Source: a virus (taxonomy: Duplodnaviria; Caudoviricetes). From it: a stretch of 64,000 bases of DNA. This document shows, in pieces, positions 1,598-44,455 of this stretch. Under the pieces are notes generated by a model, which made no database searches, had not been told where the DNA came from, and worked only from the letters and a program-made list of their open reading frames with translations. The stretch lies in the IMG/VR virus record IMGVR_UViG_3300031901_000001, positions 3,303 through 67,302 of that record; one strand, 5' to 3'. The position numbers were made by a program, and so were the translations under genes. Position 1 is the first letter of the stretch. The number at the start of each line of letters is the position of its first letter.

Positions 1598-3444
1598 CCA
1601 CGTTTCTTGATCGAGTTAAGTTCACCGTATCGGGAACACCGGGAACTGGCGCTGTCACTCCCGGTTCTGCAGTATCTACTTTTCAGACGCCTTCTGGTGC
1701 GGGTGCTGTTTCGGGTGATGTACTCCCCATCACCTTTGTAGATGGTACAGCCTGGGAAGAGAGTTATTGCCTGTGGAATGGTACTACCCTTACTCGAACC
1801 TTGCTTCGATCCTCCACAGGATCACTGTTGTCTTTAACGTCCGCAGCTGTGGGTGGTGTTACCCTATTCGCTCAAGACTTACCCGTAAGATCAAGTAGCC
1901 TGGTATTTGTAGATCAGCAGGTATTAGGGTCGACCGCTGCAAGCGTAACCTTTTCTAATATCCCTCAGACTTATGAAGATCTGGTTATCGTTGTTGATGG
2001 TGGTAGTGTCCTGAATAACTCCGCTACTACTGCTGTTCTAGGTATCCAGTTTAACGGTGATACGGGAAACAACTACACTTACACCATGCTCGGGACCTAT
2101 GGTGCGGGAACGGGTTTCTCGAATAACTCGGGCGCTGCTAACTCCATGGGATTGGGTCTCAATGCAAGCGCGGGCACAGCCGGTGTTCCATTTAGCTTCA
2201 ACGAGATCGAGATAGCTAACTATCGGAGTTCGACTCGCAAGTCGGGTATCTGTCAATTCTCATCGATCCAGGGGAATGTCGGTATTTGCCAAGGAACAGC
2301 CTCTGGTAACTGGACAGGCACCGCCGCAATCACCTCTGTAACTATCGTTGACAGGAATGGAAACAACTTTGCTGTAGGCTCCAAATTCACTCTGTATGCA
2401 CGTGCCAAGTCCAATGGTGTCGGGTCGAACGATCCCACCCTTTACCTGATCCATGACCAAACGCTGGCAGCCACGGCTGCAACCTATGATGTCACTGACA
2501 TTCCACAGGGGTATGAAGACCTCATTGTGATGGTGGAGTCTCGCCAGAACACGGGTGCTGTTCAGGCGTTCAACGTCAGGCCAAACAACGATACTGGGGC
2601 GAACTACACAGCATACATTGAGAACAGGTTTGGTTCGGCGACCTTTACCGATCATTTCCGATTTGGTTGTTCGGAGGCCGCCACAGCTACGGCCAGTGTC
2701 TTTGCGCCCAATGAGGGTGTGATCTTTGGGTACTCGAAGACAAACCGCTACAAGGATTTTCAGAGTCACGGCTTCTACCCTTCCCAGTCCTTTGAGGATA
2801 GGTGCAGTGGTGTATGGCGCAGTAACTCTGCGATCACCTCTCTTCGACTGTATCCAGATGCCAACAGCTTCGACATTGGGACACGGATCCGTGTCTACGG
2901 GCGGAAGCCGAGTATTGCACTCGCCTCGTTCGGGAACATCTACACTGACAAGCAAAGCTTGAACGGCCTGGCTACCAAAACTCTCACTGTCCCGGCGGGT
3001 TACTCGACGCTGCGTCTTATCCTCAATGGCGCAACCCTCCAGGCAGCCCTACAAGACAATCCGGTAATCCGGGTCAATGGACTTTCAACCTCGATATATT
3101 CCACACAACGGCAATACGGGTTCGGTAGCACTAATACGGCGGACCAAGGATTGTCCGCCACTAGTTGGAGCGCACAACTGGCGGGGCTGCCCGGGACTAC
3201 TGCTCCTGCTAATTCGTCGGGGTTCATTGACCTGGAGATCTTCGATTATGCTAACTCTGTATTCAGGAAGACCGGCAAGTTTCACGGCCGTCAGCCCTTC
3301 AGCACTGGGTCGCCCGACTGCTACAACATGCAGGGTGCCCTTGAAGTTAACCTCACTTCCGCCATAACTTCAATATCCGTGGCTACGGGTAGCGGGGCTA
3401 ACTTCAAGGATGGTTCCACCGTTGAACTGATATTGCTGCCGTGA
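1594..3444 (+). CDS. Tail fibre/minor tail protein with three tandem ~170-aa repeats
   Basis: Gly/Ser/Thr-rich; repeats FSNIPQTYEDLVI, VTDIPQGYEDLIV, LTVPAGYSTLRL. Confidence 0.7.
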   Translation: MTTFLDRVKFTVSGTPGTGAVTPGSAVSTFQTPSGAGAVSGDVLPITFVDGTAWEESYCLWNGTTLTRTLLRSSTGSLLSLTSAAVGGVTLFAQDLPVRSSSLVFVDQQVLGSTAASVTFSNIPQTYEDLVIVVDGGSVLNNSATTAVLGIQFNGDTGNNYTYTMLGTYGAGTGFSNNSGAANSMGLGLNASAGTAGVPFSFNEIEIANYRSSTRKSGICQFSSIQGNVGICQGTASGNWTGTAAITSVTIVDRNGNNFAVGSKFTLYARAKSNGVGSNDPTLYLIHDQTLAATAATYDVTDIPQGYEDLIVMVESRQNTGAVQAFNVRPNNDTGANYTAYIENRFGSATFTDHFRFGCSEAATATASVFAPNEGVIFGYSKTNRYKDFQSHGFYPSQSFEDRCSGVWRSNSAITSLRLYPDANSFDIGTRIRVYGRKPSIALASFGNIYTDKQSLNGLATKTLTVPAGYSTLRLILNGATLQAALQDNPVIRVNGLSTSIYSTQRQYGFGSTNTADQGLSATSWSAQLAGLPGTTAPANSSGFIDLEIFDYANSVFRKTGKFHGRQPFSTGSPDCYNMQGALEVNLTSAITSISVATGSGANFKDGSTVELILLP

Positions 3445-11251: not shown

Positions 11252-12325
11252 TTAGTCATCGCTGACGCGGTCCGAGGCATCCCGTTTGTGACTTTGGTCC
11301 TCAGCGGTATAGTGAGCCTTGATAACGAAGTCTACATCGTTCCCATGGACTTCCGCTTTGCAGATAGCCTGATAGTCACACATGCGGCAACCCCAACCGA
11401 TAGTCCTTGGTTGATCGCCTCTGTGGAGGTCGTGTATCTCCTTGGCGGTCTGAACAAAGTCATTCCATATGCTATCAACTACTCGAGGACGAACGGGCGC
11501 GAATACGCGGACAAAGCGTGTCGACCGATTTTCTTTTGCGTCAGTCAGCAGCTTTGTATACTGCTTCTTATCATGGCCTTCCTTTTTGATCCAGGCCTTG
11601 ATTGCTGAAGGCAGGGAGTCAATCCTAGCCTGAGATACCTTGCCTGTTTTTGTCAGCATCCCGGGAACCATTAACGGTTTACTGCTGATATAATCCCACA
11701 GGACGCCGTCCAATGAAGGACCCCCAACCATCTCCATTGCACGGATATAGGTAGCGCCTTGGACTGAACGCCAACGGTCTTCTTCGCTCGGTTGACGCTT
11801 AAATGTCTTATGCTCCTCAAGCCACTTGAGTTTATTCGCTTTGACCATCGAGTCTATTCGACCCGTAAACCAAAGCCCGTCCTCGAGCTCTATCCGGAAT
11901 TCATGCTCAGACTTACGACCCTTGAACTCGATAGGCTTGAGGCTTCCCTCGTAGTGATCGAAGTAGTCCTTCATGATAAGGCGGATGTCCTCGATGATGT
12001 CGCCATACATCTCTCGTTCCTTTCGGAACATCTTGCCTTCTTCAAGATCGATTTTCTTCAAGACCTTGAAGGCATCCTGACCCTCGAAATCTGCCTCGAG
12101 CATTTCATGAACAATGCCGCCGAAGGCAAAAGGCCTCCGACGACGCTTGGGAACAATCTGCAAGATATACTTATAGTAGAACATCTTGCGGCACTTACGC
12201 CAGGCGTTTACCTTAGATTGGCTGACATTGATATAGCCTTCGGGGCTGACTATGCTGCCATGGTCGTGACCCGGTGATGCCTTAGGCGTACTCGATTTCG
12301 ATGTCTTTTTGCTTGACTTCGCCAT
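11252..12325 (-). CDS. PD-(D/E)xK exonuclease, Cas4/AddB-like
   Basis: S.SK..AW..C, FG..VHEMLE, GRID..EHKT, C..C.Y..IC Fe-S staple. Confidence 0.85.
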   Translation of the reverse strand: MAKSSKKTSKSSTPKASPGHDHGSIVSPEGYINVSQSKVNAWRKCRKMFYYKYILQIVPKRRRRPFAFGGIVHEMLEADFEGQDAFKVLKKIDLEEGKMFRKEREMYGDIIEDIRLIMKDYFDHYEGSLKPIEFKGRKSEHEFRIELEDGLWFTGRIDSMVKANKLKWLEEHKTFKRQPSEEDRWRSVQGATYIRAMEMVGGPSLDGVLWDYISSKPLMVPGMLTKTGKVSQARIDSLPSAIKAWIKKEGHDKKQYTKLLTDAKENRSTRFVRVFAPVRPRVVDSIWNDFVQTAKEIHDLHRGDQPRTIGWGCRMCDYQAICKAEVHGNDVDFVIKAHYTAEDQSHKRDASDRVSDD

Positions 12326-14852
12326 ATTTCTCAATCCACTTCTCGTAACTGATCCCAGCACCCCAAGGACCTATCGTTCCATCAGCACAGATAGGCACCT
12401 TAAGATCGATTTCAAACTTCTGCAACAGCTCGGGTCCTGACATAATTCTCAGTCCGTGATCCCAAACAGCCTTGACATGATCGTTCCGGACCATCATCAA
12501 GATAGCGTCATGCACAGTCCCGACAATGCGGAATGCTTTCTTCGGGAAGTACTTAGCCATTTCAAGTGCCGCCATGAGGTTGAGCTCATTGGCGAACGAT
12601 TGGACCGGGCTGTTGATCGCCTGACGTTCAGCCTCTCTCCTCTGCGGAGTATCCCTGTGGGACATAGCATGAGGCAGTCGACGTTTACGACCGCTGAGTG
12701 AACGGACATAACCATTGGCGTTTGCGAACCGACGTTGGCGTTTATGCCACTTGGGGAATGCGGGGTAAAGGTCGAAGAATGCGACACGCGATGCTTCGGC
12801 TTCCTTGTCCGTAACTTCAACGCCGTAGTTATCACGTGCATATAGTTTGAACTTCTTCCACCACATGCCGTATAGATAACCGAAGTTGATAGCCTTTGCT
12901 TTCTTGCGATCCTCCTTCCAGTTAACGAAGGCTTCCTTGAGCTGCTTTGTTTCAGTCCAGTGCTTGACAGCATTGACTGCCTCATCGCCACCAATCGACA
13001 GCACATATTCTACTGCCTCATGATACTTCATCTTCTTGTACTTCTTGCCCTCCATTTTGTGGTGGGCTTTGGCAGTCTTTATCATTTCCTTTTTACGACC
13101 ACCACCGCGTTCAATCTCACGGATCGCCGTTTGCCAGTGTGGATCGCCGTCTTCAAAGAAGATCTGTAATAGGTTTTCTTCATTAGCCAACTCAGCTGCA
13201 ATACGCAACTCAATCTGACTAAGATCCATTTCCATTAGTGTCCATCCTTCCGGCGCTGTAATCAGCGTTCGGATGCGTGGGTCACGGGGGACTTGCTGGA
13301 GGTTGGGGTGCTCACAAGATAGCCGCCCAGTAACAGTCCCGTGAAGCTTGAAAACAGGATGAAGATAACCCTCAGTGTCGAGGAAAGGCTTCCACCCTTC
13401 AATGAACCCGGACAGTTGCTTAGTAGCAGCCCTAAACTTAAGAAGGTCGTTGACCATAGGATGATCGATACGAAGCAGTACAGACTCACTGGTCGACTCC
13501 TTTCCACCCTTGGTTTTTTCAACACTCTTTATCTTCAGGACATTGAAAAGAAGGTCAGCGAGTTGATCGCTTGACCCCCAGTTTATTTTCCCAGTCTTTG
13601 CATCGACCTTCTTAGCTTTTGCTGCCCATGGCTCGAGGTTTGTTTGAGCCTTTGACAATTCCTCACGCAGATAGGCTTCAGCATCGTCCATTTGCTTAAG
13701 GTTGATGTAAACGCCTTGGTACTCAGCATTCACGAAGAGTCCCACACAGGGCATCATAATATGCTTGAAGACTCGATTAACTTCGTAATCTTCACTTAGA
13801 CGCTTTGCAAAGATCGGCTTGAGCAACCGGGTGTAGTAAACGTCATGAGCCGCATACTTCGCGTTATCCGGAGACCACTCAGTCTTTTCTTTACCGTCAA
13901 TATCCCAGTCAGGAACACCGAGCTCTTTCTGTGCGAGATATTTCAGACCATGCTGGTCATTCTCATCCAATAGGTAGTGAGCAAGCATGGTGTCGAAATC
14001 GACTTTCCACTTTGCCCCGAACCTCACCTTCATCCACAGGCAGTCGAACTTGCCGTTATGGAAAACAGTGATGCACTTCTTCAGTGCCTTGCTAACTTTT
14101 TTGACTATCCAGCGTAGTCGTTGTTTCGACCATACACCGGCAGTCTCCATGGGCACGACCCATTGACGTTTCCTGCACCCGAACTGCATAGCTACCACTG
14201 CGGGAAGGTTCCCGTTGTGGGTAGCCTTGTGATCCTTGATGTCGTTGGGGGAAGCTTTCTTCGATGCGATTAACTCATCGAGCATCGTCATGAAGGGGTA
14301 GAGTCTCGAGGTTTCAAGGTCAACGGCAACAGTGCCGGTAAGGTCCTTGAGCATTTGTTGCACCTTTTTCTCGGTGTCAACAATAGTGTAGTCTAGTCCC
14401 TTTTCTTCAGGAATACCCCCAAAATCAAGGCACTCTTTCAATCTCCTAACATCACCTTCAATAACGCTTACCCACTTTTCATCGTGGAGTGCATAGTTGG
14501 GATGGTAGATAGGCAGGACAACCCGGCCTTCATGATCGATGGGCTTCCCCCGGAGGTTCCTAATACCACTACGCCCGAGCAACGCCTCACAAGGAGTGTT
14601 GCCCAGGAGTAGCATAAGTTTAGGATCAACTTTCTTGACACGCTTCTGGACCTGTGGGATACGATCCCGAAGCATTGTCTTCGTTACCCGTTTGCCGTCG
14701 GGCAATCCCTCCTCAAGAACATCGGTATATGATAGCTTCTTGGGGTTGAAGCCCGCCTTCACCAAGGCCTCGTTGAGGATCTTCTTGGCCCGGCCGTTCA
14801 TGTCGGGGTCTTGCCCGACAATCATGATGTCTTTTTGTTTTAGTTTCTTCAC
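12282..14852 (-). CDS. polA: Family A DNA polymerase with N-terminal uracil-DNA-glycosylase-like domain and 3'-5' exonuclease
   Basis: GQDP..LLLGN..PIYHPNY (UDG4-like); DLET, HNGKFD, YAAHD (exonuclease); DLSQIELR, KAINFGYLYG, VHD (polymerase motifs A/B/C). Confidence 0.95.
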   Translation of the reverse strand: MKKLKQKDIMIVGQDPDMNGRAKKILNEALVKAGFNPKKLSYTDVLEEGLPDGKRVTKTMLRDRIPQVQKRVKKVDPKLMLLLGNTPCEALLGRSGIRNLRGKPIDHEGRVVLPIYHPNYALHDEKWVSVIEGDVRRLKECLDFGGIPEEKGLDYTIVDTEKKVQQMLKDLTGTVAVDLETSRLYPFMTMLDELIASKKASPNDIKDHKATHNGNLPAVVAMQFGCRKRQWVVPMETAGVWSKQRLRWIVKKVSKALKKCITVFHNGKFDCLWMKVRFGAKWKVDFDTMLAHYLLDENDQHGLKYLAQKELGVPDWDIDGKEKTEWSPDNAKYAAHDVYYTRLLKPIFAKRLSEDYEVNRVFKHIMMPCVGLFVNAEYQGVYINLKQMDDAEAYLREELSKAQTNLEPWAAKAKKVDAKTGKINWGSSDQLADLLFNVLKIKSVEKTKGGKESTSESVLLRIDHPMVNDLLKFRAATKQLSGFIEGWKPFLDTEGYLHPVFKLHGTVTGRLSCEHPNLQQVPRDPRIRTLITAPEGWTLMEMDLSQIELRIAAELANEENLLQIFFEDGDPHWQTAIREIERGGGRKKEMIKTAKAHHKMEGKKYKKMKYHEAVEYVLSIGGDEAVNAVKHWTETKQLKEAFVNWKEDRKKAKAINFGYLYGMWWKKFKLYARDNYGVEVTDKEAEASRVAFFDLYPAFPKWHKRQRRFANANGYVRSLSGRKRRLPHAMSHRDTPQRREAERQAINSPVQSFANELNLMAALEMAKYFPKKAFRIVGTVHDAILMMVRNDHVKAVWDHGLRIMSGPELLQKFEIDLKVPICADGTIGPWGAGISYEKWIEKYGEVKQKDIEIEYA

Positions 14853-15331
14853 GGGTGCTCAACCACCTGTCGAGAAAAGTAATCCACGATGTAACCCGCC
14901 GGTGTCACCTCGAACACAGGGACTTTCTTTTCCCATAACAACTTCAAGGGTGAAGGGTCTCGATAGGCTCGTTCAAAGAATACCCTGCCGATAACCTGGC
15001 TATCGATGATAAGCCTGGCACAATCCTCACAAGGACTATCAGTGCAGTAAAGGTCAAGTCCGCCATTGGGGCAATACCCTACCAGCGACATCGGCAAATG
15101 ACTGATGGCATTACGCTCAGCGTGGGTTGTGCCGCAGCGACCCGGTACTACGCCCGGGCATTCGTTGCCGGCGCAATGCGCTGCTCCAGGTGCTGCACCG
15201 TTCCAGCCGATTGAGACCGGTCGATTGTCATGCGTAATGACGGCGCCAACATTCAACCTCATGCACGTTGATCGCTGGGATGCCAGTCTTGCGATCCCCA
15301 TAAACATCACGGCCCTCGAAATACGTCCCAT
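14849..15331 (-). CDS. dCMP deaminase
   Basis: STC.RL.VGAVI, GWNG, HAE.NA, SPCEDC zinc motifs. Confidence 0.9.
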   Translation of the reverse strand: MGRISRAVMFMGIARLASQRSTCMRLNVGAVITHDNRPVSIGWNGAAPGAAHCAGNECPGVVPGRCGTTHAERNAISHLPMSLVGYCPNGGLDLYCTDSPCEDCARLIIDSQVIGRVFFERAYRDPSPLKLLWEKKVPVFEVTPAGYIVDYFSRQVVEHP

Positions 15332-15380
15332 CTAACCGATCCTTTTCAAGATGTATGCCGCGGCTTTCTTGGAACCTGGC

Positions 15381-15419
15381 AGAGAGAAACCCCAGCGAGC
15401 CTTGAATAGCTCGCTGAGG
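15381..15419 (-). terminator. Probable terminator
   Basis: Minus strand CTCAGCGAGC-TATTCAAG-GCTCGCTGGG followed by TTTCTCTCT. Confidence 0.55.
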
Positions 15420-15441
15420 CAAACCCAACGGATCAGGAGTC

Positions 15442-16329
15442 TCACCGGCTGAGCCCCCAAAGTTGAAGGTAGTCATTCTTGAACATATGCAGGGAACCGA
15501 TCTGCATGTAGAAGTTCCCCAGCTTGAGGGGCTCATCTCGTCCCAGACTATGTAGTCTATCTGCCACCCATTGAACGAGACGGAGGGTGAGGAACAGGTC
15601 GTCACGGAAGTGTCGGACGAAGTCACAGGACCGGATATGATAATTAATGTGCATACGGCCATCGCGGACAAGGAAATGGTACCCAATAGTGCAAGGCGCG
15701 CGCTTGCTACCACCGCCCGTGTCTTCAGGGAACCATATGGGCAAATAGGCCTGTCGAGTGAGTTCATCACCTGCAAGAAGTTCGACCACGTCATTGAGGT
15801 CTCCATACTCGTACTTGATACCATGATGAGGACGAGGCATCACACCGCCGTTACTGTCACGATATTCATGGAGAGGGCCCATGATCTGCTCAGGCTCTCG
15901 GGTAGCATTGGCTATGAAGCCTGCGTATTTCGGCCAGTACCGCTCCATGTAGTTATGATTGAACTTGCCATTATCATCAAGGAAGGTTGAGGCCTTGTTA
16001 CCGTAGGGCCACTTGGACCATTGAACACCAGGATTGACGGGATACCCACAGACTCGTTCCCAAAAATGCTCCTCAGCCCAAGGCATATTAGGTTCAATAT
16101 CGCTGACTGCATTGTTCATCGCATCAGCAAGACCATGAACTCCTCGGTCATACTTCGACATCTCAACCCCAAAGGAACAGTTCGCTACTTCGAAGGTAGC
16201 CATCTCCGGCATTTTGGAGATGTCGGTCCCCTGCCATCGAGAGGTATGAACAACACTGCTGCGATACCTCAACCAGTGCGCTGCCTGGTCGATGCACTGC
16301 TTGAAATCAATATATAGCTGAGGCTTCAC
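15442..16329 (-). CDS. Thymidylate-synthase-fold enzyme 1, cytosine-type (putative dCMP C5-modifying enzyme)
   Basis: TRQA, APC, RSCDFVRHFRDD, GSLHMF; Asp at the ThyA N177 / T4 gp42 D179 position. Confidence 0.85.
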   Translation of the reverse strand: MKPQLYIDFKQCIDQAAHWLRYRSSVVHTSRWQGTDISKMPEMATFEVANCSFGVEMSKYDRGVHGLADAMNNAVSDIEPNMPWAEEHFWERVCGYPVNPGVQWSKWPYGNKASTFLDDNGKFNHNYMERYWPKYAGFIANATREPEQIMGPLHEYRDSNGGVMPRPHHGIKYEYGDLNDVVELLAGDELTRQAYLPIWFPEDTGGGSKRAPCTIGYHFLVRDGRMHINYHIRSCDFVRHFRDDLFLTLRLVQWVADRLHSLGRDEPLKLGNFYMQIGSLHMFKNDYLQLWGLSR

Positions 16330-17150
16330 TTGCTGTCCCCCTTCTTCTCAACATAGGCGTTCCGATGGCCAGGATGATTGTCCCGAAGATATTTCGTAAG
16401 CTTCTTTCGCTTCTTCCCCGTAATCATTTTGTCTGCTGTTTCCTTGACCTTCATAGCTTGAGCGAACTTCTCGATCCCGCGAAAATGCTCATCGCATAAG
16501 TATCGAGCTGTCCATTTTATCCACCAGTCAAAGAAGTGCCGGTCTTTTTCCCTGAGTTTATTTAATTTATCCTCCCACCCTTTCCAGTGAGCTATTGCGG
16601 TTGCGGCATATTGAGGATGAATAGTAACATTTGCAAAGTGACAAGTCATCCCCATAAATTCCATGCCCGAGAAGTCAAATCCGTCTAGCAGGATGTCTCG
16701 AATAAACACGAGGTCGGCGGGGAATTTCTTGAACAGCTCTGTGGTCCTATAGAATACATCGATCTTATACGCTTTCTTGCTCAGCTGAGTGATAACGACC
16801 GACTGAATGCAAGGCCCCATGACTGAGGCCCGCTTCGACTTCTTCACGATGTCATTCTTGAGGAAGTGATTGTAGGTGGTAAATCCCACAGAGCCGTAGG
16901 AGGGTTTCTTGCGACGTTCTTCCCAGAGCTTAAGAGCTGCGGCCTTCGACTCGGGATGAAGGTATCCCTTGATCAATAGGCCGAGCTTGTTGCGGGTATA
17001 TCCGCAGTCAGCTAGCGTGAGAGGGTCGTCCTCGTCCCATAAGTCGTAGAATACAAGCTTTCGGGTTTCTAGGATTTTCCTAGCCCCCGAGAATAAGTCA
17101 GCCTTCATCAAAGAAAGCCTAAAACAATGATCAAGCCATTCTTTTTTCAA
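16326..17150 (-). CDS. Highly divergent thymidylate-synthase-fold protein 2
   Basis: GPCIQSVVI..FYRTTELFKKFPAD: Cys-to-Arg spacing 21 and Asp at Arg+11, as in the TS fold. Confidence 0.65.
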   Translation of the reverse strand: MKKEWLDHCFRLSLMKADLFSGARKILETRKLVFYDLWDEDDPLTLADCGYTRNKLGLLIKGYLHPESKAAALKLWEERRKKPSYGSVGFTTYNHFLKNDIVKKSKRASVMGPCIQSVVITQLSKKAYKIDVFYRTTELFKKFPADLVFIRDILLDGFDFSGMEFMGMTCHFANVTIHPQYAATAIAHWKGWEDKLNKLREKDRHFFDWWIKWTARYLCDEHFRGIEKFAQAMKVKETADKMITGKKRKKLTKYLRDNHPGHRNAYVEKKGDSK

Positions 17151-17632
17151 GTGAGCCTCCGCTTCATGTATTTATAAATAGCCTTTATTTCTTCAAGGGA
17201 GGCGTCCGACTTAAGGCGATTAGCCCGCCAGCTTATTACTTCGACATTGCCCTTGATGTATCCTTTTGAGGTATCCACCCTGTCAAGAGTGGGTGAACCG
17301 TCTTTAACTGTTCTTGATCCCATCACTATAGGAATACCCAAAACGGGGCATACTTTCGGTATTTGAATGTCTTTCTCAGTGATGGTTACAGGCCAACCCC
17401 TTTTGTTGGCTAATCGAATTAAAGACTTTTCGGGGTTTTTTCTCCTCCAGGATTTGGCTTTCTTTTGGATTGTTATCTTATCCTTAGGTTGGCTATCCCT
17501 GTCCTTAATACATAATACACATCCGCCTTTAACTTTTCTTTTAGCGATGTGCCCCCGTTTACAGGGCTTACCGGTGAAGTAATAGTCTTCACCGTTATTG
17601 ATAGCCTTTCGTCTTAATCCCGGAGGAGGCAT
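17147..17632 (-). CDS. HNH-type homing endonuclease
   Basis: FTGKPCKRGH N-terminus; CPVLGIPI..PTLDRVD..GYIKGNVEVISWRAN. Confidence 0.8.
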   Translation of the reverse strand: MPPPGLRRKAINNGEDYYFTGKPCKRGHIAKRKVKGGCVLCIKDRDSQPKDKITIQKKAKSWRRKNPEKSLIRLANKRGWPVTITEKDIQIPKVCPVLGIPIVMGSRTVKDGSPTLDRVDTSKGYIKGNVEVISWRANRLKSDASLEEIKAIYKYMKRRLT

Positions 17633-17647
17633 TAGTATTCCCCGCTG

Positions 17648-18421
17648 TTACTGAGCTGTGTTTATATCAGTAATGTCACCCAAGTTCAACGCCGGTTTAT
17701 GAGCATGATCTCGTACCAGGTCCCGGTGATCCGGCTCAATCCAGCCTTCCGGTTTAACTACATCAAAGGTCGATCCCCGCTTTGACTCCTCGGGCTTCTC
17801 AGCACGCTTCTTTAGCATATTCGCCCTGTGGACTCGGCGCCATGCTTCTTTGAAAATACGAGGACCGAATTGAAGGTAGGCCGTACCGAGTTTGACATAA
17901 ACGCCGTCGACCAGTGCGTCGAGCTGTTTATGTAGTCCCTCGACAATGCCCTCGTCATCCTCTGTCTCGGCAGCGATGACAAGGGCCTCTCCCTCTTCTT
18001 GATATTCGTCGGTCTCCTCCCGGTCAAACAGGATGCGGAAATCCGCTAAGTCCTGACCGACATCATCAAGAACTCCGTTCAACAATCGGGGTTTGCCGTG
18101 ATAGCCCAAGTCGAATTTCTCATGGAAACCAACGATGTCGCCCATCATGTCGACCGGTAAGTCTTGGGGGTCGATGCCGAGCGCAAGTTCAACGGTGGTC
18201 GACAACGCCTCAAGGGCAATGATGGTGTTCTTGTCAACACCGACACGATAGTTGTCCCCGTGCGCGTGAGCAGCCTTACGCATGGAGACAAGCAAGGTGA
18301 TGAATTCTGTTGCTTCATCCTTATGGAACTTAATATGAAGGAACTCTGCGGGGTTTCCTTCCCGGTCAGTGAAGGCGACCAGGCGATCCCCGACTTCAAT
18401 GGTTTCAATATCCAAAATCAT
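17648..18421 (-). CDS. All-alpha NTP pyrophosphatase (MazG/DR2231-like) with extra N-terminal domain; possible dCTPase/dUTPase
   Basis: EETDEY..QLDALVDGVYV..G..W..VH.ANM.K. Confidence 0.8.
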   Translation of the reverse strand: MILDIETIEVGDRLVAFTDREGNPAEFLHIKFHKDEATEFITLLVSMRKAAHAHGDNYRVGVDKNTIIALEALSTTVELALGIDPQDLPVDMMGDIVGFHEKFDLGYHGKPRLLNGVLDDVGQDLADFRILFDREETDEYQEEGEALVIAAETEDDEGIVEGLHKQLDALVDGVYVKLGTAYLQFGPRIFKEAWRRVHRANMLKKRAEKPEESKRGSTFDVVKPEGWIEPDHRDLVRDHAHKPALNLGDITDINTAQ

Positions 18422-18912
18422 TCTCCCTTCGTGCGAGCTTCAAAGAATATAACTGTATCGATCAATGCATCCATGTCGTCTCCAATGCGATAGACGAAGT
18501 GAGCATGCTCCGCCGCCCATTGGCGATATAGGTAGAGAAGTTTGTTGTAATTGTTTTCGACATCGGAGAGATGCTTCTCCGTGTCATGATCCTTGACCAC
18601 GTGGCCACCGAGACCCCTGATGCCCGCATCGCAATAGATAATGATTGGGCGGCTCTCATAAAAGAGTCCAGTGCGTCCTGGAGTGATCGGATTTCCTTCG
18701 ACCCTAACAGCTCCATAGATAGCGTTGGAAATAACAGGGTGTCTGACAAAGACCGTGTCTTTGAGGTCATGGTAGCGATCCACTCTTTCATTAATTTCTT
18801 TGTCTGACAAGGGAGGTCCTTCACTCTCTTGCACGAGACGATTGAGCGCGTTGGCAAGATGGATACCCAAGGTACTCTTACCACTGTTGTCCATACCTTC
18901 TATCACGATCAT
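18418..18912 (-). CDS. Deoxynucleoside monophosphate kinase (P-loop)
   Basis: MIVIEGMDNSGKSTL; VRHP.IS..IYG (thymidylate-kinase-like). Confidence 0.85.
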   Translation of the reverse strand: MIVIEGMDNSGKSTLGIHLANALNRLVQESEGPPLSDKEINERVDRYHDLKDTVFVRHPVISNAIYGAVRVEGNPITPGRTGLFYESRPIIIYCDAGIRGLGGHVVKDHDTEKHLSDVENNYNKLLYLYRQWAAEHAHFVYRIGDDMDALIDTVIFFEARTKGE

Positions 18913-18942
18913 GAGCTAGGTCACCCCTTCAAGTATGCGGTG

Positions 18943-18971
18943 TTGACGCGGTCAACAAACGGTGTTAGTAA
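18943..18971 (+). promoter_or_regulatory. Sigma70-like promoter toward the primase operon
   Basis: TTGACG-N17-TAGTAA; the -35 lies inside palindrome GTTGACGCGGTCAAC. Confidence 0.5.
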
Positions 18972-18993
18972 GTCTTTTCCGGCTCAATGTCAA
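18965..18993 (-). promoter_or_regulatory. Divergent sigma70-like promoter toward the modification/replication operon
   Basis: Minus strand TTGACA-N17-TACTAA. Confidence 0.55.
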
Positions 18994-19015
18994 CCGCCGG
19001 TATCGTCGGGGTTTT

Positions 19016-19480
19016 ATGAAACTTGAAGATTACTACACCGCCAAAGAGGCGGCGGCAGTTATGTCGATTGAGTATAAAACATTCCTTATGAGAGTTTCAC
19101 GGGGGAAAATAAAAGTAGCTCGAATTGGACCGATGATCTTTGTGGAGAAAACTGTTATCCACAGTCTCCTCGATGATCAGGATAATGGGGAACCTCCCAT
19201 TCGAGACCATCCACTCTACGGTCTCTATCGGGGGATGATCAGCAGGTGTGAAAACCCCAAAGCCAACGCTTATCATCGATATGGAGGCCGAGGGATTAAG
19301 GTTTGCAAGCGTTGGAGAGACGATTTCAAGGCATTTGTTGAGGACGTGGGCAAGCGCCCCAGCAAGAAACATTCTCTAGATCGTTACCCTAATCCCGATG
19401 GTGACTATGAGCCGAGTAACACTCGGTGGGCAACTTCAAAACAACAAAGAGCAAATCTTTCTAAGGGGTTGTCCAAGTGA
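19016..19480 (+). CDS. Excisionase-type HTH fused to HNH endonuclease
   Basis: YTAKEAA.VM..; Y..M..RC.N...Y..YGGRGIKVC..W..F..F..D; SLDR..N.DGDYEPSN.RWAT. Confidence 0.85.
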   Translation: MKLEDYYTAKEAAAVMSIEYKTFLMRVSRGKIKVARIGPMIFVEKTVIHSLLDDQDNGEPPIRDHPLYGLYRGMISRCENPKANAYHRYGGRGIKVCKRWRDDFKAFVEDVGKRPSKKHSLDRYPNPDGDYEPSNTRWATSKQQRANLSKGLSK

Positions 19481-29424: not shown

Positions 29425-30238
29425 AACAGCACCGGGAGTGGTTATTAGGAATGAGTTTGAATGTGGGATGTTGGGAGTGTGGTGGGTGTGATGGAAATAG
29501 AGTGAGAGGAGTGATTAACATGTTGACGTAATCCCGTGTTAGAAGTTGCGCGAAGTTGTCGATATTTATTGGCGTTGTCCTTTATATACAAAACTGCGTA
29601 TTTTCACCCATCTGTAGAACTTACGCTTCGTGTATTGATAGCATGGAATGGTTAAGACATGCGAAAACGGTGCAAAGTATGATGGTTATAGCGTAGAAAT
29701 GCGATGTTGTCAATACCAGAAGCGTAAGTTAATAAAAAAGATAAAAAAATGAAGAATATGGTATATTCACGCGAGCAGGATTTGGTCAATGGATATGTAG
29801 ACAAGATGGATAAGGTGTAAGATACTCCAGTAATGGCAGCCCCGGAGCCATCGAGAGACCGTTTTGGGGCTTGATGTAATTACATTCTTACATGTAGTTT
29901 ATTGATGTCTTGATGGATATGGCCGTATCCGTCATGTCAATGCATGTAAAATTATGCCGCTGTGGGCAAGACAGGCTCAAGAGAAGACATGATATATCAT
30001 GACATCTGTATAGCTGTATGGGCTGTATAGGTTGGATATGGGTAGGTGGCAGCTTGTCTATCTGTGTAGGTGGGTAGGTCTATTAGTCCAGAGCTTTTTG
30101 CGGCTTGAGCAGACGAGTCGCGGGAGGCGACGACGGACGAGATGACATGATATATCATTACATTACGTGACAAGACATCATGATATATCATCACACCTGA
30201 AAAATGCGTCCGCATGAAAATAAATGTAATTACGTGTA
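29425..30238. other. Large non-coding region between divergent transcription units; candidate genome terminus/origin
   Basis: ~800 nt without credible ORF; A-tracts; three palindromes; followed by strong promoters. Confidence 0.55.
29988..30191. repeat. Three copies of the 12-bp palindrome ATGATATATCAT
   Basis: 29989-30000 (extends to CATGATATATCATG), 30147-30158, 30180-30191. Confidence 0.9.
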
Positions 30239-30266
30239 TTGACGTTGATGCATGATCGTGTATGAT
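30239..30266 (+). promoter_or_regulatory. Strong sigma70-like promoter
   Basis: TTGACG-N16-TATGAT with extended TG; a second TTGACA at 30301. Confidence 0.7.
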
Positions 30267-30378
30267 GATTTGCATGACGAACGCAATTGCATTCGTTTCT
30301 TTGACATTGTGAATATGCGATCATGTATCAATGAATACGCGCAATCACGCGCATATTCGTTGATAAGGATTACACGAC

Positions 30379-30795
30379 ATGACAAAGGTGAACATGCAAT
30401 CGAATGCGCGTGCACGCGATAACGTTTCGTCAAACGAAATGCGTAACAAGGCGCGCACGAAAACGATTGTTGAACCACGCAACATTGCGTTGAAAACAAT
30501 TCATGATGACATCATGCGCGATAATGCAAATGCGACAATCACGACGAAAAAAATGCGCGTTTGGTTACGCGCGAATGCACGTGATTTTGCACATGCGCAC
30601 AATGCATCATGGATGTTCACGCAACGTGAATATGATGTCGTTCGTTCGCAATTCGATGTGAAATATGCATCGAAAATCGAACGTGCATCGAAGCGCAACA
30701 CGCAATCGAATGACACGCCGAAAACGACGCGCAAGCGCAAAACGAACGTGAATGAAACGCCGAACGTCGAAACGCAAACGACAATCGACGCATAA
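30379..30795 (+). CDS. Early DNA-binding-like protein (HTH/W family) encoded in CY/RG-depleted DNA
   Basis: SD AAGGA; KKMRVWLR..SWMF; no Gly; Leu only TTG/TTA. Confidence 0.8.
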   Translation: MTKVNMQSNARARDNVSSNEMRNKARTKTIVEPRNIALKTIHDDIMRDNANATITTKKMRVWLRANARDFAHAHNASWMFTQREYDVVRSQFDVKYASKIERASKRNTQSNDTPKTTRKRKTNVNETPNVETQTTIDA

Positions 30796-30862
30796 CGCAC
30801 AACGAATACATGCATGAATTAACGTGCATGTATTCATTGATACATGATGAAAGGTGAAAACG

Positions 30863-31009
30863 ATGAATAATGTTAATGTTCGTTTCGACATGTCAGACGC
30901 ACACGTTCATGCGTTTGAACGCGAAATCGATCGTCGTGTCACGTTGTTTCAACGTCGTCGCGCAATCGCAATCGTCGCATCACGTTACGCATACCAAAGG
31001 AACGCATGA
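30863..31009 (+). CDS. Small early protein (48 aa)
   Basis: SD AAAGGTG; MNNVNVRFDMSDAHVHAFEREIDRRV...; translated by hand. Confidence 0.6.
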   Translation: MNNVNVRFDMSDAHVHAFEREIDRRVTLFQRRRAIAIVASRYAYQRNA

Positions 31010-31098
31010 TGATTATTGAACATCTGGAAATCAACGAATATGTGATATGCGTCATTGCAATCGCATACGTTGCGATACGATTTATCACACGTCGATGA
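31006..31098 (+). CDS. Small early membrane peptide (30 aa)
   Basis: SD AAGGA, ATGA overlap; YVICVIAIAYVAIRF followed by RR. Confidence 0.55.
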   Translation: MMIIEHLEINEYVICVIAIAYVAIRFITRR

Positions 31099-31262
31099 AT
31101 GAAAATGCATGATCGCATATTGACGATGAAATCTTTTCCGCATATGATTTCCGTGACCCGCCCCGTCCAAAATTCCAACGTCCATGCGTATCAGCAGTAC
31201 CAGCCCTCACCCGATAGAATTTGGGAATTAGGCTATCACGTAAATACGTGTAATCACCTCGG

Positions 31263-43510: not shown

Positions 43511-44455
43511 TTACAACTTGCGGATGTCCAATGCCCGCTCGCCCGGTATCAGCTTACGATGCTGAACCCACCCGTAAAGGTTCCCGTGAAGCAGAGGCTG
43601 TTCCCAATGGCCTTCATCCTCGTCTTCGATCCAACGATCAGGAGTGCACTGATGCTCGGACGGGGTTGCATGAGGAGGAGTGTCAGTGATCAGTCGATCA
43701 TACCGAGCGAACTCATCTGATAGCTTATCGCTCCCGTCGAAAGGCTTGTAGGAAAGTCGAGCACAACGAGCAGTCGATAGCTTGAGCGCTTCTTCAAGGG
43801 TCAGGCTATATCGTTTGCCTTCAGCATCGCTTGTCCAGAACAGCTGCTTGTCACGAACCCGAGTCCAATGGACATAAGGCATATGCCACTCACCCGGACG
43901 CAAAAGCTGAGGAGTCGAGTCCGCCAAAGCCTTGTTCATCATTGCAGCCATTGTCTGCAACTCAGGCTGAGCGGCACTGTGGATACGAAGGTTCCAGAAG
44001 TTCTGCAGGTTTGTTGAGGTGATCAGTACATCGATCCAGCCAAACCACTCGAGAGGACGATTTGCCCACTGTTTGTGAACACCCAGTTCATGAAGTTTCT
44101 CGACTTCAGCCTGAGTATGACGAGCAAGATCATACCAGATCTTTTCAGCAAGCTTTCTTGCGGGCTCGGGCATTTCTTGTAAGGCTTGCATCCCGGGCTG
44201 GTTCTGCATGAAGTGAGGCATGAAAGGGTCTTCAGCCAATAGCTTCACGGTGGGGACTGCACGACTGCTCCTCGCATTTCGGCTGAAGTCCCTGTGGGTC
44301 ATCACTTCGGCATGGATCGGCCGCCAATAACGAGCATGCCAAGTCGGGAGCCTTATCCCATCGGGACTGATGCTATCAGCGATAATCTTAACCTCAGCCG
44401 GTACTTCATTGTAGAGCATACCGGCGGGGATCGTATCAAAACCTCCAAAGGTCAT
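43511..44455 (-). CDS. thyX: Flavin-dependent thymidylate synthase
   Basis: HAEVMTHRDFSRNARSSRA (RHRx7S-type), HKQWANR.LE, HSAAQPE, CARLSY. Confidence 0.88.
   Translation of the reverse strand: MTFGGFDTIPAGMLYNEVPAEVKIIADSISPDGIRLPTWHARYWRPIHAEVMTHRDFSRNARSSRAVPTVKLLAEDPFMPHFMQNQPGMQALQEMPEPARKLAEKIWYDLARHTQAEVEKLHELGVHKQWANRPLEWFGWIDVLITSTNLQNFWNLRIHSAAQPELQTMAAMMNKALADSTPQLLRPGEWHMPYVHWTRVRDKQLFWTSDAEGKRYSLTLEEALKLSTARCARLSYKPFDGSDKLSDEFARYDRLITDTPPHATPSEHQCTPDRWIEDEDEGHWEQPLLHGNLYGWVQHRKLIPGERALDIRKL

Follow-up and report, generated by a model that had tools for sequence, protein, structure and literature searches.

A divergent phage protein of predicted thymidylate synthase fold is paired with a cytosine-type thymidylate synthase homologue in a nucleotide-pool operon

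Enzymes of the thymidylate synthase (TS) fold function as obligate dimers, each active site being completed by residues of the other subunit. In E. coli ThyA, a pair of arginines binds the free 5'-phosphate of the nucleotide, His207 and Tyr209 bind the 3'-OH, and the segment spanning residues 66-109 (with I79, W80, W83 and Y94) helps to bind folate. Here, we examine a divergent protein of this predicted fold, TS2, together with the TS homologue encoded directly after it, TS1, in a 64,000-nucleotide stretch of a virus of the Caudoviricetes (IMG/VR record IMGVR_UViG_3300031901_000001, positions 3,303 to 67,302; the whole stretch is called the window, and its own numbering is used throughout), and compare the pair with the closest described systems.

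In phage T4, gp42 (PDB 1b5d/1b49) is a single homodimeric dCMP hydroxymethylase that carries the trans Arg-Arg pair, an H-x-Y motif (GSLHVY), the folate segment and an acidic residue at the ThyA L143 position, and it belongs to a deoxycytidine-replacement pathway with the gp56 dCTPase, the gp1 deoxynucleoside monophosphate (dNMP) kinase and the cd deaminase. A second group, comprising AfhB of E. coli phage HY126 (PDB 9iqu/9iqc), RB69 gp48 and DLP3 gp80, consists of flavin-dependent 5-hydroxy-dCMP synthases. AfhB shows that a TS fold acting on dCMP can use a cofactor other than folate, and the substitution D169N is diagnostic of 5-hydroxy-dCMP synthases; the sections consulted do not describe AfhB as paired with a second TS-like subunit (PMC13326640). 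An Asp at the ThyA N177 position, also found in AfhB, is the established signature of cytosine-specific TS homologues such as T4 gp42, Xp12 TS and MilA (PMC13326640, PMC8670742). In the Xp12/PaMx74-type pathway, a dCMP 5-methyltransferase provides C5-modified cytosine before replication and a deaminase selective for 5-methylcytosine (5mC), mSCD, supplies thymidylate (10.1101/2024.12.05.627091). A neighbourhood of a deaminase, an Asp177 TS, PRA-PH and PolA has been reported for metavirome contigs with modified cytosine (bioRxiv 10.1101/2024.12.05.627091); on such contigs, Asp177 TS homologues made 5-methyl-dCMP as mononucleotides (10.1101/2024.12.05.627091; PMC8670742), and the deaminase acted on 5-methyl-dCTP, supplying dTTP (10.1101/2024.12.05.627091).

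The two genes of the window lie next to each other on the minus strand.

16326-17150, minus strand: TS2, divergent protein of predicted thymidylate synthase fold, 274 amino acids, TTG start (translation, structure model and structural matches)
15442-16329, minus strand: TS1, cytosine-type TS homologue, 295 amino acids, GTG start overlapping the TS2 stop (Pfam PF00303 1.4e-5, phrog_160 6.8e-28)

The stop codon of TS2 and the GTG start of TS1 overlap in the junction sequence GTGA, and the TTG start of TS2 overlaps the stop codon of the preceding HNH gene in the junction sequence TTGA. TS2 homologues start with MKxEW at the matching place in the close-family alignment, and as homologues begin at the same positions, the start calls for both TS2 and TS1 are sound. 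TS1 is recognizable from its sequence, with a Pfam Thymidylat_synt match that is weak but above threshold and a good match to phrog_160. TS2 matched no Pfam family above noise and did not match PF00303 at E <= 1, nor did PF00303 match the TS2 homologues of Strzyga, MW202455 and P744 at that cutoff. NCBIfam models gave no match to TS2, and its only PHROGs match was to one family of unknown function. Searches against PDB sequences with phmmer and hmmsearch, using the single sequence as well as 25- and 112-sequence profiles, yielded chance matches only. BLASTP of TS2 against TS1 gave an E value of 3.7, comparison of the 112-sequence TS2 alignment with the TS1 alignment by hhalign was not significant (E 0.024, probability 2%), and a global hhalign of the 112-sequence alignment against E. 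coli ThyA was meaningless. Megablast of positions 15000-19000 against deposited phages found no match. A sequencing-run search found the stretch as contigs of two rhizosphere metagenomes, one of which is its probable source, and listed no RNA dataset.

The relationship of TS2 to known TS is instead seen in its predicted structure. The AlphaFold2 (AF2) model built from the 112-sequence alignment has a mean predicted local distance difference test (pLDDT) score of 94.1 and a predicted TM score of 0.90, and the top Foldseek matches to this model in the PDB were all TS-family chains. With VIA-align, the best match was AfhB (9iqu, the dCMP hydroxylase of phage HY126; Z 13.2, root-mean-square deviation 3.9 Å over 180 residues). 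The CMP hydroxymethylase MilA aligned at Z 12.4, and L. casei TS, E. coli ThyA, M. tuberculosis ThyA and the T4 dCMP hydroxymethylase at Z 10-11 (gp42, Z 10.3 over 180 aligned residues). At Z >= 8 there were 396 PDB chains, and the top 50 listed were all from the TS family. In BFVD, a protein without known function from Pseudomonas phage PMBT14 ranked first, at TM 0.76-0.79, ahead of TS and gp42 proteins of viruses. DNA cytosine-C5 methyltransferases are the known enzymes that act on DNA with a Pro-Cys nucleophile, and the TS2 model does not have the Rossmann-type S-adenosylmethionine-binding fold with target-recognition domain that distinguishes them; no methyltransferase was present among the Pfam matches or the top structural matches listed for TS2. 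As modelled, TS2 is a TS-fold protein, as the original prediction, made from the sequence alone, had proposed; the model and the Foldseek and VIA-align comparisons agree on this fold.

The residues expected to carry out catalysis are kept in TS2. All conservation figures for the family refer to 112 diverse sequences with a mean column identity of 25%. In this set K55, Y63, C114, R135 and D146 are invariant, and L59, S87, E138 and F143 are more than 90% conserved (E138 at 96%, with Asp or Glu at that position in 100% of the family). In the close family, KKSKRASVMGPC, YRTTE and KKFPADL are invariant. The relevant positions in the window are as follows.

16809-16811, minus strand: codon of C114, the presumed catalytic nucleophile, at the ThyA C146 position (invariant in 112 sequences; codon checked)
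16746-16748, minus strand: codon of R135, at the position of the 5'-phosphate ligand ThyA R166 (invariant; codon checked)
16713-16715, minus strand: codon of D146, at the ThyA N177 position, Asp being the cytosine-specific state (invariant)
16962-16988, minus strand: helix with invariant K55, L59 and Y63 on one face (i, i+4, i+8) (invariant or near-invariant columns; helix 53-63 in the model)
16830-16841, minus strand: K104-S105-K106-R107, a lineage-specific basic loop just before the Cys (alignment and model)

The nucleophile sits in G112-P113-C114, R135 follows 21 residues later within YRTTE, and D146 lies in KKFPAD, eight residues past E138, in the register of ThyA D169 to N177. The C114/R135/E138/D146 spacing is therefore that of ThyA C146/R166/D169/N177, and the non-significant hhalign alignment pairs the same four residues with C213/R233/D236/D244 of TS1. 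T4 gp42 shares the catalytic Cys, the Arg 20-21 residues later and the Asp at the N177 position. Actinophage versions of TS2 keep the Cys as GSCM. These results bear out the prediction that the protein retains the Cys of a GPC motif, an Arg 21 residues later and the cytosine-type Asp. The description of TS2 as very lysine-rich was also correct (37 Lys among 274 residues, isoelectric point (pI) 9.6). Conserved basic positions comprise R24/K25 (at the place of ThyA R21), K55, K61, K106, R135 and K141/K142. The KSKR loop (104-107) is invariant in close relatives only and variable in the wide family; residues 91-110 have pLDDT values of 74-84, and the loop is the lowest-confidence part of the structured region (1-260). 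As the nucleophile, the phosphate-binding Arg, the cytosine-reading Asp and Tyr63 are all invariant, TS2 would be expected to bind a cytosine nucleotide and to use Cys-dependent chemistry. On its sequence, the protein is best read as catalytically equipped, a putative active cytosine-nucleotide enzyme.

Other contacts of canonical TS enzymes appear to have been lost. Structural alignments place TS2 1-192 on ThyA 1-223 and TS2 2-240 on ThyA 1-261, with a constant offset of +31 after the Cys. Because the sequence links to known TS failed, residue equivalences outside 114-146 rest on these alignment ranges and on secondary-structure order; the equivalences for SYG and NVTIH come from the order of secondary structure in the model and the constant offset, and not from residue-level superposition. 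In this register, ThyA S125-R126-R127 corresponds to TS2 S84-Y85-G86, so that R126 and R127 are replaced by Y85 and G86 just before the strand equivalent to ThyA 128-133 (family consensus YGS). By the +31 offset, ThyA D205-Y209 corresponds to NVTIH (174-178), with T176 and H178 in place of H207 and Y209 (family consensus FHFANxT). TS2 thus has neither the trans Arg-Arg pair nor the H-x-Y contact to the 3'-OH. Both losses had been proposed by eye, against TRQA and SLHMF of TS1, and both are reasonable within the limits of such a register. In addition, helix 53-63 of the model runs directly into helix 66-79, which is followed by strand 86-91, and although TS2 has gained eight residues in a basic insertion, its offset to ThyA at the Cys amounts to -32. 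The direct helix junction and this offset lead us to infer that approximately 40 residues are absent from TS2, namely the folate lid segment (ThyA 66-109, with W80, W83 and Y94). AfhB has about 34 more residues over its aligned span and so does not share this deletion. Furthermore, K141 and K142 of TS2 replace the folate-contacting L172 and G173 of ThyA.

Compared with E. coli ThyA and L. casei TS (PF00303), TS2 has the same alpha/beta fold and order of core elements, with Cys146, Arg166, the acidic residue 169 and position 177 in register, and differs by the change of N177 to Asp, the replaced Arg pair and H-x-Y motif, the apparent absence of 66-109, and extra basic C-terminal helices. Unlike T4 gp42, it has neither the Arg pair nor the H-x-Y motif and apparently no folate segment, and the acidic residue at the L143 position is found in neither protein of the pair, TS2 having M111 at -3 from the Cys (SVMGPC) and TS1 an Arg (KRAPC). 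TS2 also differs from gp42 in being invisible to the Pfam TS model and in always occurring with a second TS-like gene. Relative to AfhB, with which it shares 12% sequence identity, TS2 has Glu138 rather than the Asn of the D169N signature.

TS2 belongs to a sizeable family. In a set of 5.8 billion proteins, 903 relatives were found, none of them with a Pfam domain, and the family forms at least 262 clusters at 50% identity, almost all viral. The nearest clusters in the ESM Atlas consist of viral proteins labelled "hypothetical"; in a few of these clusters 10-23% of the members have PF00303, and no functional lead emerged. A literature search found nothing on the TS2 family or on heteromeric or two-subunit TS. 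The family is an uncharacterised, phage-only one, and with the modelled fold it is a new, unannotated branch of the TS superfamily.

In every informative context, TS2 is followed by a TS1-type gene, often with overlapping stop and start codons. This order was observed in the Brevundimonas phages Strzyga and Polewnik, uncultured phage MW202455, Yersinia phage P744, the Pseudomonas phages PMBT14, Almagne, Lebethron and STP12, Stutzerimonas phage STP9, the Serratia phages Opt-155, Serbin and Tlacuache, Clostridium phage P21 and the metagenome contigs L004, L005 and L017. On L005 the 295-aa gene downstream of TS2 had no Pfam match and was counted as TS1 by the motifs of its clade; the metagenome contexts L006, L016 and L018 were too short and were left out of the count. 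In PMBT14, Opt-155 and P21, the gene upstream of TS1 was confirmed as TS2 with hhalign probabilities of 98.7-100%. Weaker matches to TS2 (hhalign probability 33-81%) lie upstream of TS1 in the actinophages Muddy (gp47/gp46), GTE2 (gp39/gp38) and Zuko (gp75/gp76), and these relatives have lost most motifs but retain Y63 together with the Cys, Arg and Asp. The "hypothetical proteins" Muddy gp47 (L007 2961-3854) and GTE2 gp39 (L010 1907-2800), each directly upstream of an annotated thymidylate synthase, are such remote TS2 relatives, which suggests that the therapeutic Mycobacterium phage Muddy carries the same two-gene unit. The unit is conserved from phages of Proteobacteria to those of Clostridium, and probably extends to actinophages including Muddy. 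No Pamexvirus or Xp12-type phage was found by tblastn with TS2 or its PMBT14 homologue.

The TS1 proteins that accompany TS2 form a recognizable clade, with (T/S)RQ at ThyA R126-R127, Arg at the L143 position, RSCD, Asp at the N177 position and SLHxF, the last residue of which is Tyr in Clostridium phage P21. In the TS1 of the window, the corresponding motifs are T191-R192-Q193-A194 and S279-L280-H281-M282-F283. The changes R127 to Q and Y209 to F are shared across TS1 orthologues, P21 keeping the Tyr at the last position. The clade thus differs from Xp12-type TS in having RQ rather than RR and an Arg at the L143 position. This Arg and the Gln at R127 occur in all partnered orthologues, and the product of TS1 (methyl, hydroxymethyl or other) is not readable from the published L143 rule. 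The AF2 model of TS1 (pLDDT 81) aligns at Z of about 15 to TS, AfhB and MilA and ends at about ThyA residue 218, without the C-terminal segment of ThyA that closes over folate. It has a long segment between helices B and G, the lid, of which the TS2 model has no counterpart. TS2, in turn, spans ThyA 1-261 and adds basic C-terminal helices, whereas TS1 has no C-terminal part. The pI of TS1 is 6.4 and the median for its family 6.2, compared with a family median of 9.3 and a net charge of about +10 for TS2. As modelled, TS1 and TS2 are complementary in architecture and charge. Taken together, these features point to a distinct two-gene unit, in which one gene encodes a reduced, basic protein of TS fold whose nucleophile is intact and the other a member of the TS clade that RQ and Arg143 define.

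The unit is embedded in an operon with the order P-loop kinase-like protein, MazG-like protein, HNH endonuclease, TS2, TS1, dCMP-family deaminase, and PolA with a UDG-like N-terminus. The remaining genes of this operon, and one located further away in the window, are as follows.

18418-18912, minus strand: P-loop protein in the place that a thymidylate/dNMP kinase occupies in relatives (position; weak NCBIfam dTMP-kinase P-loop match, 1e-3)
17648-18421, minus strand: MazG-like nucleotide pyrophosphohydrolase, in the C-terminal part of the protein (phrog_671 7.3e-14)
17147-17632, minus strand: HNH endonuclease located between the MazG-like gene and TS2, a probable mobile insertion (phrog_3322 6.2e-31)
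14849-15331, minus strand: dCMP/cytidine-deaminase-family protein (Pfam dCMP_cyt_deam_1 1.1e-16)
12282-14852, minus strand: PolA, family A DNA polymerase with a UDG-superfamily N-terminus (Pfam DNA_pol_A 2.8e-69, exonuclease 2.6e-18, UDG 9.8e-10)
43511-44455, minus strand: ThyX-like flavin-dependent thymidylate synthase (phrog_85 4.6e-76; Pfam Thy1 1.4e-5)

In relatives, the position of the MazG-like gene is taken by an NTP-PPase, PRA-PH or dUTPase gene, and the gene order is otherwise the same in all of them. As some relatives are without the HNH gene and others have one between TS2 and TS1, the HNH gene at 17147-17632 is probably mobile. Further HNH genes lie in or beside the cassette, at 18962-19480 on the plus strand of the window and at 1086-1751 of contig L017, between TS2 and TS1, and the cassette looks like a hotspot for the insertion of homing endonucleases. 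On contig L004, too, the cassette comes with a predicted PolA-UDG fusion. TS1 and the deaminase gene are separated by 110 nt (15332-15441), in which a GC-rich inverted repeat, CCTCAGCGAGC...GCTCGCTGGGG, precedes a run rich in T on the coding strand; this arrangement resembles a terminator or attenuator that would set the TS pair apart from the deaminase and polymerase genes. Strzyga and MW202455 likewise encode a ThyX in addition to the TS2/TS1 pair. Counting the ThyX-like gene, the window has three "thymidylate synthase" genes, which belong to two unrelated folds. With a ThyX-like gene present here and in Strzyga, the TS1/TS2 pair is not needed for dTMP.

The operon follows the logic of the T4 pathway, with a pyrophosphohydrolase, a TS-like enzyme, a kinase and a deaminase, and it is the same type of neighbourhood as that of the Xp12/PaMx74-type system. 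In this setting, the most likely function of the TS2/TS1 pair is to supply the phage DNA with a modified cytosine nucleotide. The best-supported reading, to which we assign a probability of roughly 0.45, is that TS1 and TS2 form a heterodimer that acts on a cytosine mononucleotide before replication. Strict gene order and coupling with a dedicated TS1 clade, a fold that is obligately dimeric, and complementary architecture and charge argue for this reading, and in a fold with shared active sites a heterodimer is a natural arrangement. The MazG-like enzyme would release dCMP from dCTP, and TS1/TS2 would convert it to a C5-modified dCMP (5-methyl-dCMP, 5-hydroxymethyl-dCMP or a derivative), with D146 reading the cytosine base, R135 and R24/K25 holding the 5'-phosphate, and C114 attacking C6; canonical binding of methylene-tetrahydrofolate would not be open to TS2. 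The kinase-like protein would then phosphorylate the modified dCMP and the phage PolA would incorporate the product, while the deaminase and ThyX would cover the supply of thymidylate.

Several points weigh against this heterodimer. The binding of TS1 to TS2 is deduced from coupling and fold, and since both proteins have the full set of Cys, Arg and Asp, two sequential homodimeric enzymes could equally account for them. The apparent lack of the segment with W80, W83 and Y94 and the presence of Lys141/Lys142 at the folate-contacting L172/G173 are difficult to reconcile with canonical folate binding by TS2, and in a heterodimer TS2 would supply no trans-arginine to the TS1 site. The consistently basic TS2 family would also fit nucleic-acid binding. 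No TS2-TS1 fusions were found among proteins of 514-2000 aa, which is weak evidence, and the literature search gave no DNA composition for PMBT14, Serbin, Tlacuache, Strzyga, P744 or Muddy.

The main rival is that TS2 is a separate, second mononucleotide enzyme that forms a homodimer and uses a non-folate co-substrate, such as the flavin employed by AfhB or some other anionic molecule. Its substrate would be dCMP or the product of TS1, and it might, for instance, trap the exocyclic-methylene intermediate of 5-hydroxymethyl-dCMP, reduce it, or hydroxylate C5. Nucleophile, phosphate-binding and base-reading residues are complete in both TS1 and TS2, as expected of two enzymes, and the apparent loss of the folate lid fits a different co-substrate, as do the conserved Lys141/Lys142 at folate-contact positions together with K55, K61 and K106. 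The closest solved structure is the flavin-dependent AfhB, at Z 13.2 compared with 10-11 for folate-dependent TS; this advantage is small, and the possible link to flavin comes from this structural similarity. Xp12/AXL1-type 5mC phages and Pamexvirus phages manage with one TS and DHFR and without TS2, which suggests that TS2 contributes added chemistry rather than structure (PMC9206674). For a 5-hydroxylase specifically, the D169N signature (PMC13326640) is absent from TS2. Moreover, a strict TS2-then-TS1 order with overlapping codons in very distant phages exceeds what a shared pathway usually demands. We regard a separate enzyme as possible, and on balance unlikely.

A further proposal treats TS2 as a pseudoenzyme without catalytic activity, whose role in a heterodimer would be purely structural or regulatory, lending TS1 stability or adjusting its specificity; the pair would then be a subfunctionalised half-of-the-sites enzyme. 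TS enzymes are known for half-of-the-sites reactivity, and the strict pairing and translational coupling with TS1 would suit such a partner, as would the absence of the Arg pair and the H-x-Y motif and the apparent absence of the lid. The nucleophile is normally the first residue to be lost in pseudoenzymes, whereas Cys114, Arg135, Asp146 and Tyr63 are invariant in the highly divergent TS2 family and are kept even in actinophages. TS2 is also at least as conserved as TS1, with mean column identities in close relatives of 76% and 60%, respectively. Given this invariance despite divergence, a pseudoenzyme is disfavoured and we consider it improbable. The original prediction had offered a non-catalytic TS1/TS2 heterodimer as its alternative; of its two halves, the heterodimer is the more likely and the absence of catalysis is what the invariant residues speak against.

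The favoured claim of the original prediction was that the lost contacts fit an enzyme acting on cytosine within a DNA strand and possibly responsible for a CY preference. TS2 would then act after replication on cytosine or 5-modified cytosine in DNA, possibly with a CC/CT preference, as the first TS-fold enzyme to install or remodel a C5 substituent on a pyrimidine within a polynucleotide. Without the lid and the trans-arginines, and with a surface that has become basic, the active site might admit a flipped-out cytosine, and an early island free of CY would avoid modification at CC/CT. The apparent loss of the Arg pair, of the H-x-Y contact to the 3'-OH and of the lid that closes the ThyA active site is compatible with this, as are the basic character of the family and the Lys/Arg-rich C-terminal tail of the window protein, which bears much of its charge. 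This tail, however, is poorly conserved across the family, and some members are not basic at all (Zuko gp75, pI 5.7; MW202455, pI 7.1). TS1 orthologues show the same kind of losses (R127Q, Y209F), and since TS1 has lost half of the same contacts, these losses are a trait of the gene pair rather than the mark of a DNA enzyme. The residues for the 5'-phosphate, R135 and R24/K25, are kept in TS2, which is embedded in, and translationally coupled within, an operon for the nucleotide pool. The inference from lost contacts to a DNA substrate consequently found no specific support.

The CY-poor island itself is real. Positions 30101-31200 (1.1 kb) are nearly without CC, CT, GG and AG (a fraction of 0.045, compared with 0.249 +/- 0.04 elsewhere in the window) while all other dinucleotides are present, and a context-dependent process at the DNA level may exist in this phage. 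An open reading frame of 138 aa (30379-30795, plus strand) lies inside the island, its composition forced by the dinucleotide constraint. PMBT14 has no CY-free island and Strzyga has only a weak 300-bp stretch at 0.10 (L013 19641-19940), although both encode TS2; with two genomes this comparison is a weak one. CY-free islands were accordingly dropped as a shared trait of TS2 phages, and the island is not linked to TS2 by co-occurrence, which leaves the proposed context preference of TS2 unsupported. We know of no TS-fold enzyme that acts on a polynucleotide, and none turned up in the literature. A DNA-directed TS2 is therefore the least probable of the readings considered, and very unlikely.

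Current descriptions of how phages make modified cytosine feature one TS homologue, and the TS2 family is invisible to Pfam-domain mining such as MetaGPA. If the TS1/TS2 heterodimer, or alternatively a second, non-folate step by TS2, is true, the textbook picture of the TS family as homodimers would need an exception. Either could also explain the lack of activity of some phage TS homologues when cloned alone, and might open the way to a novel DNA base or a novel enzyme tool. Knowledge of the modification helps to predict the fate of the carrier phages when they encounter restriction and type IV defence systems.

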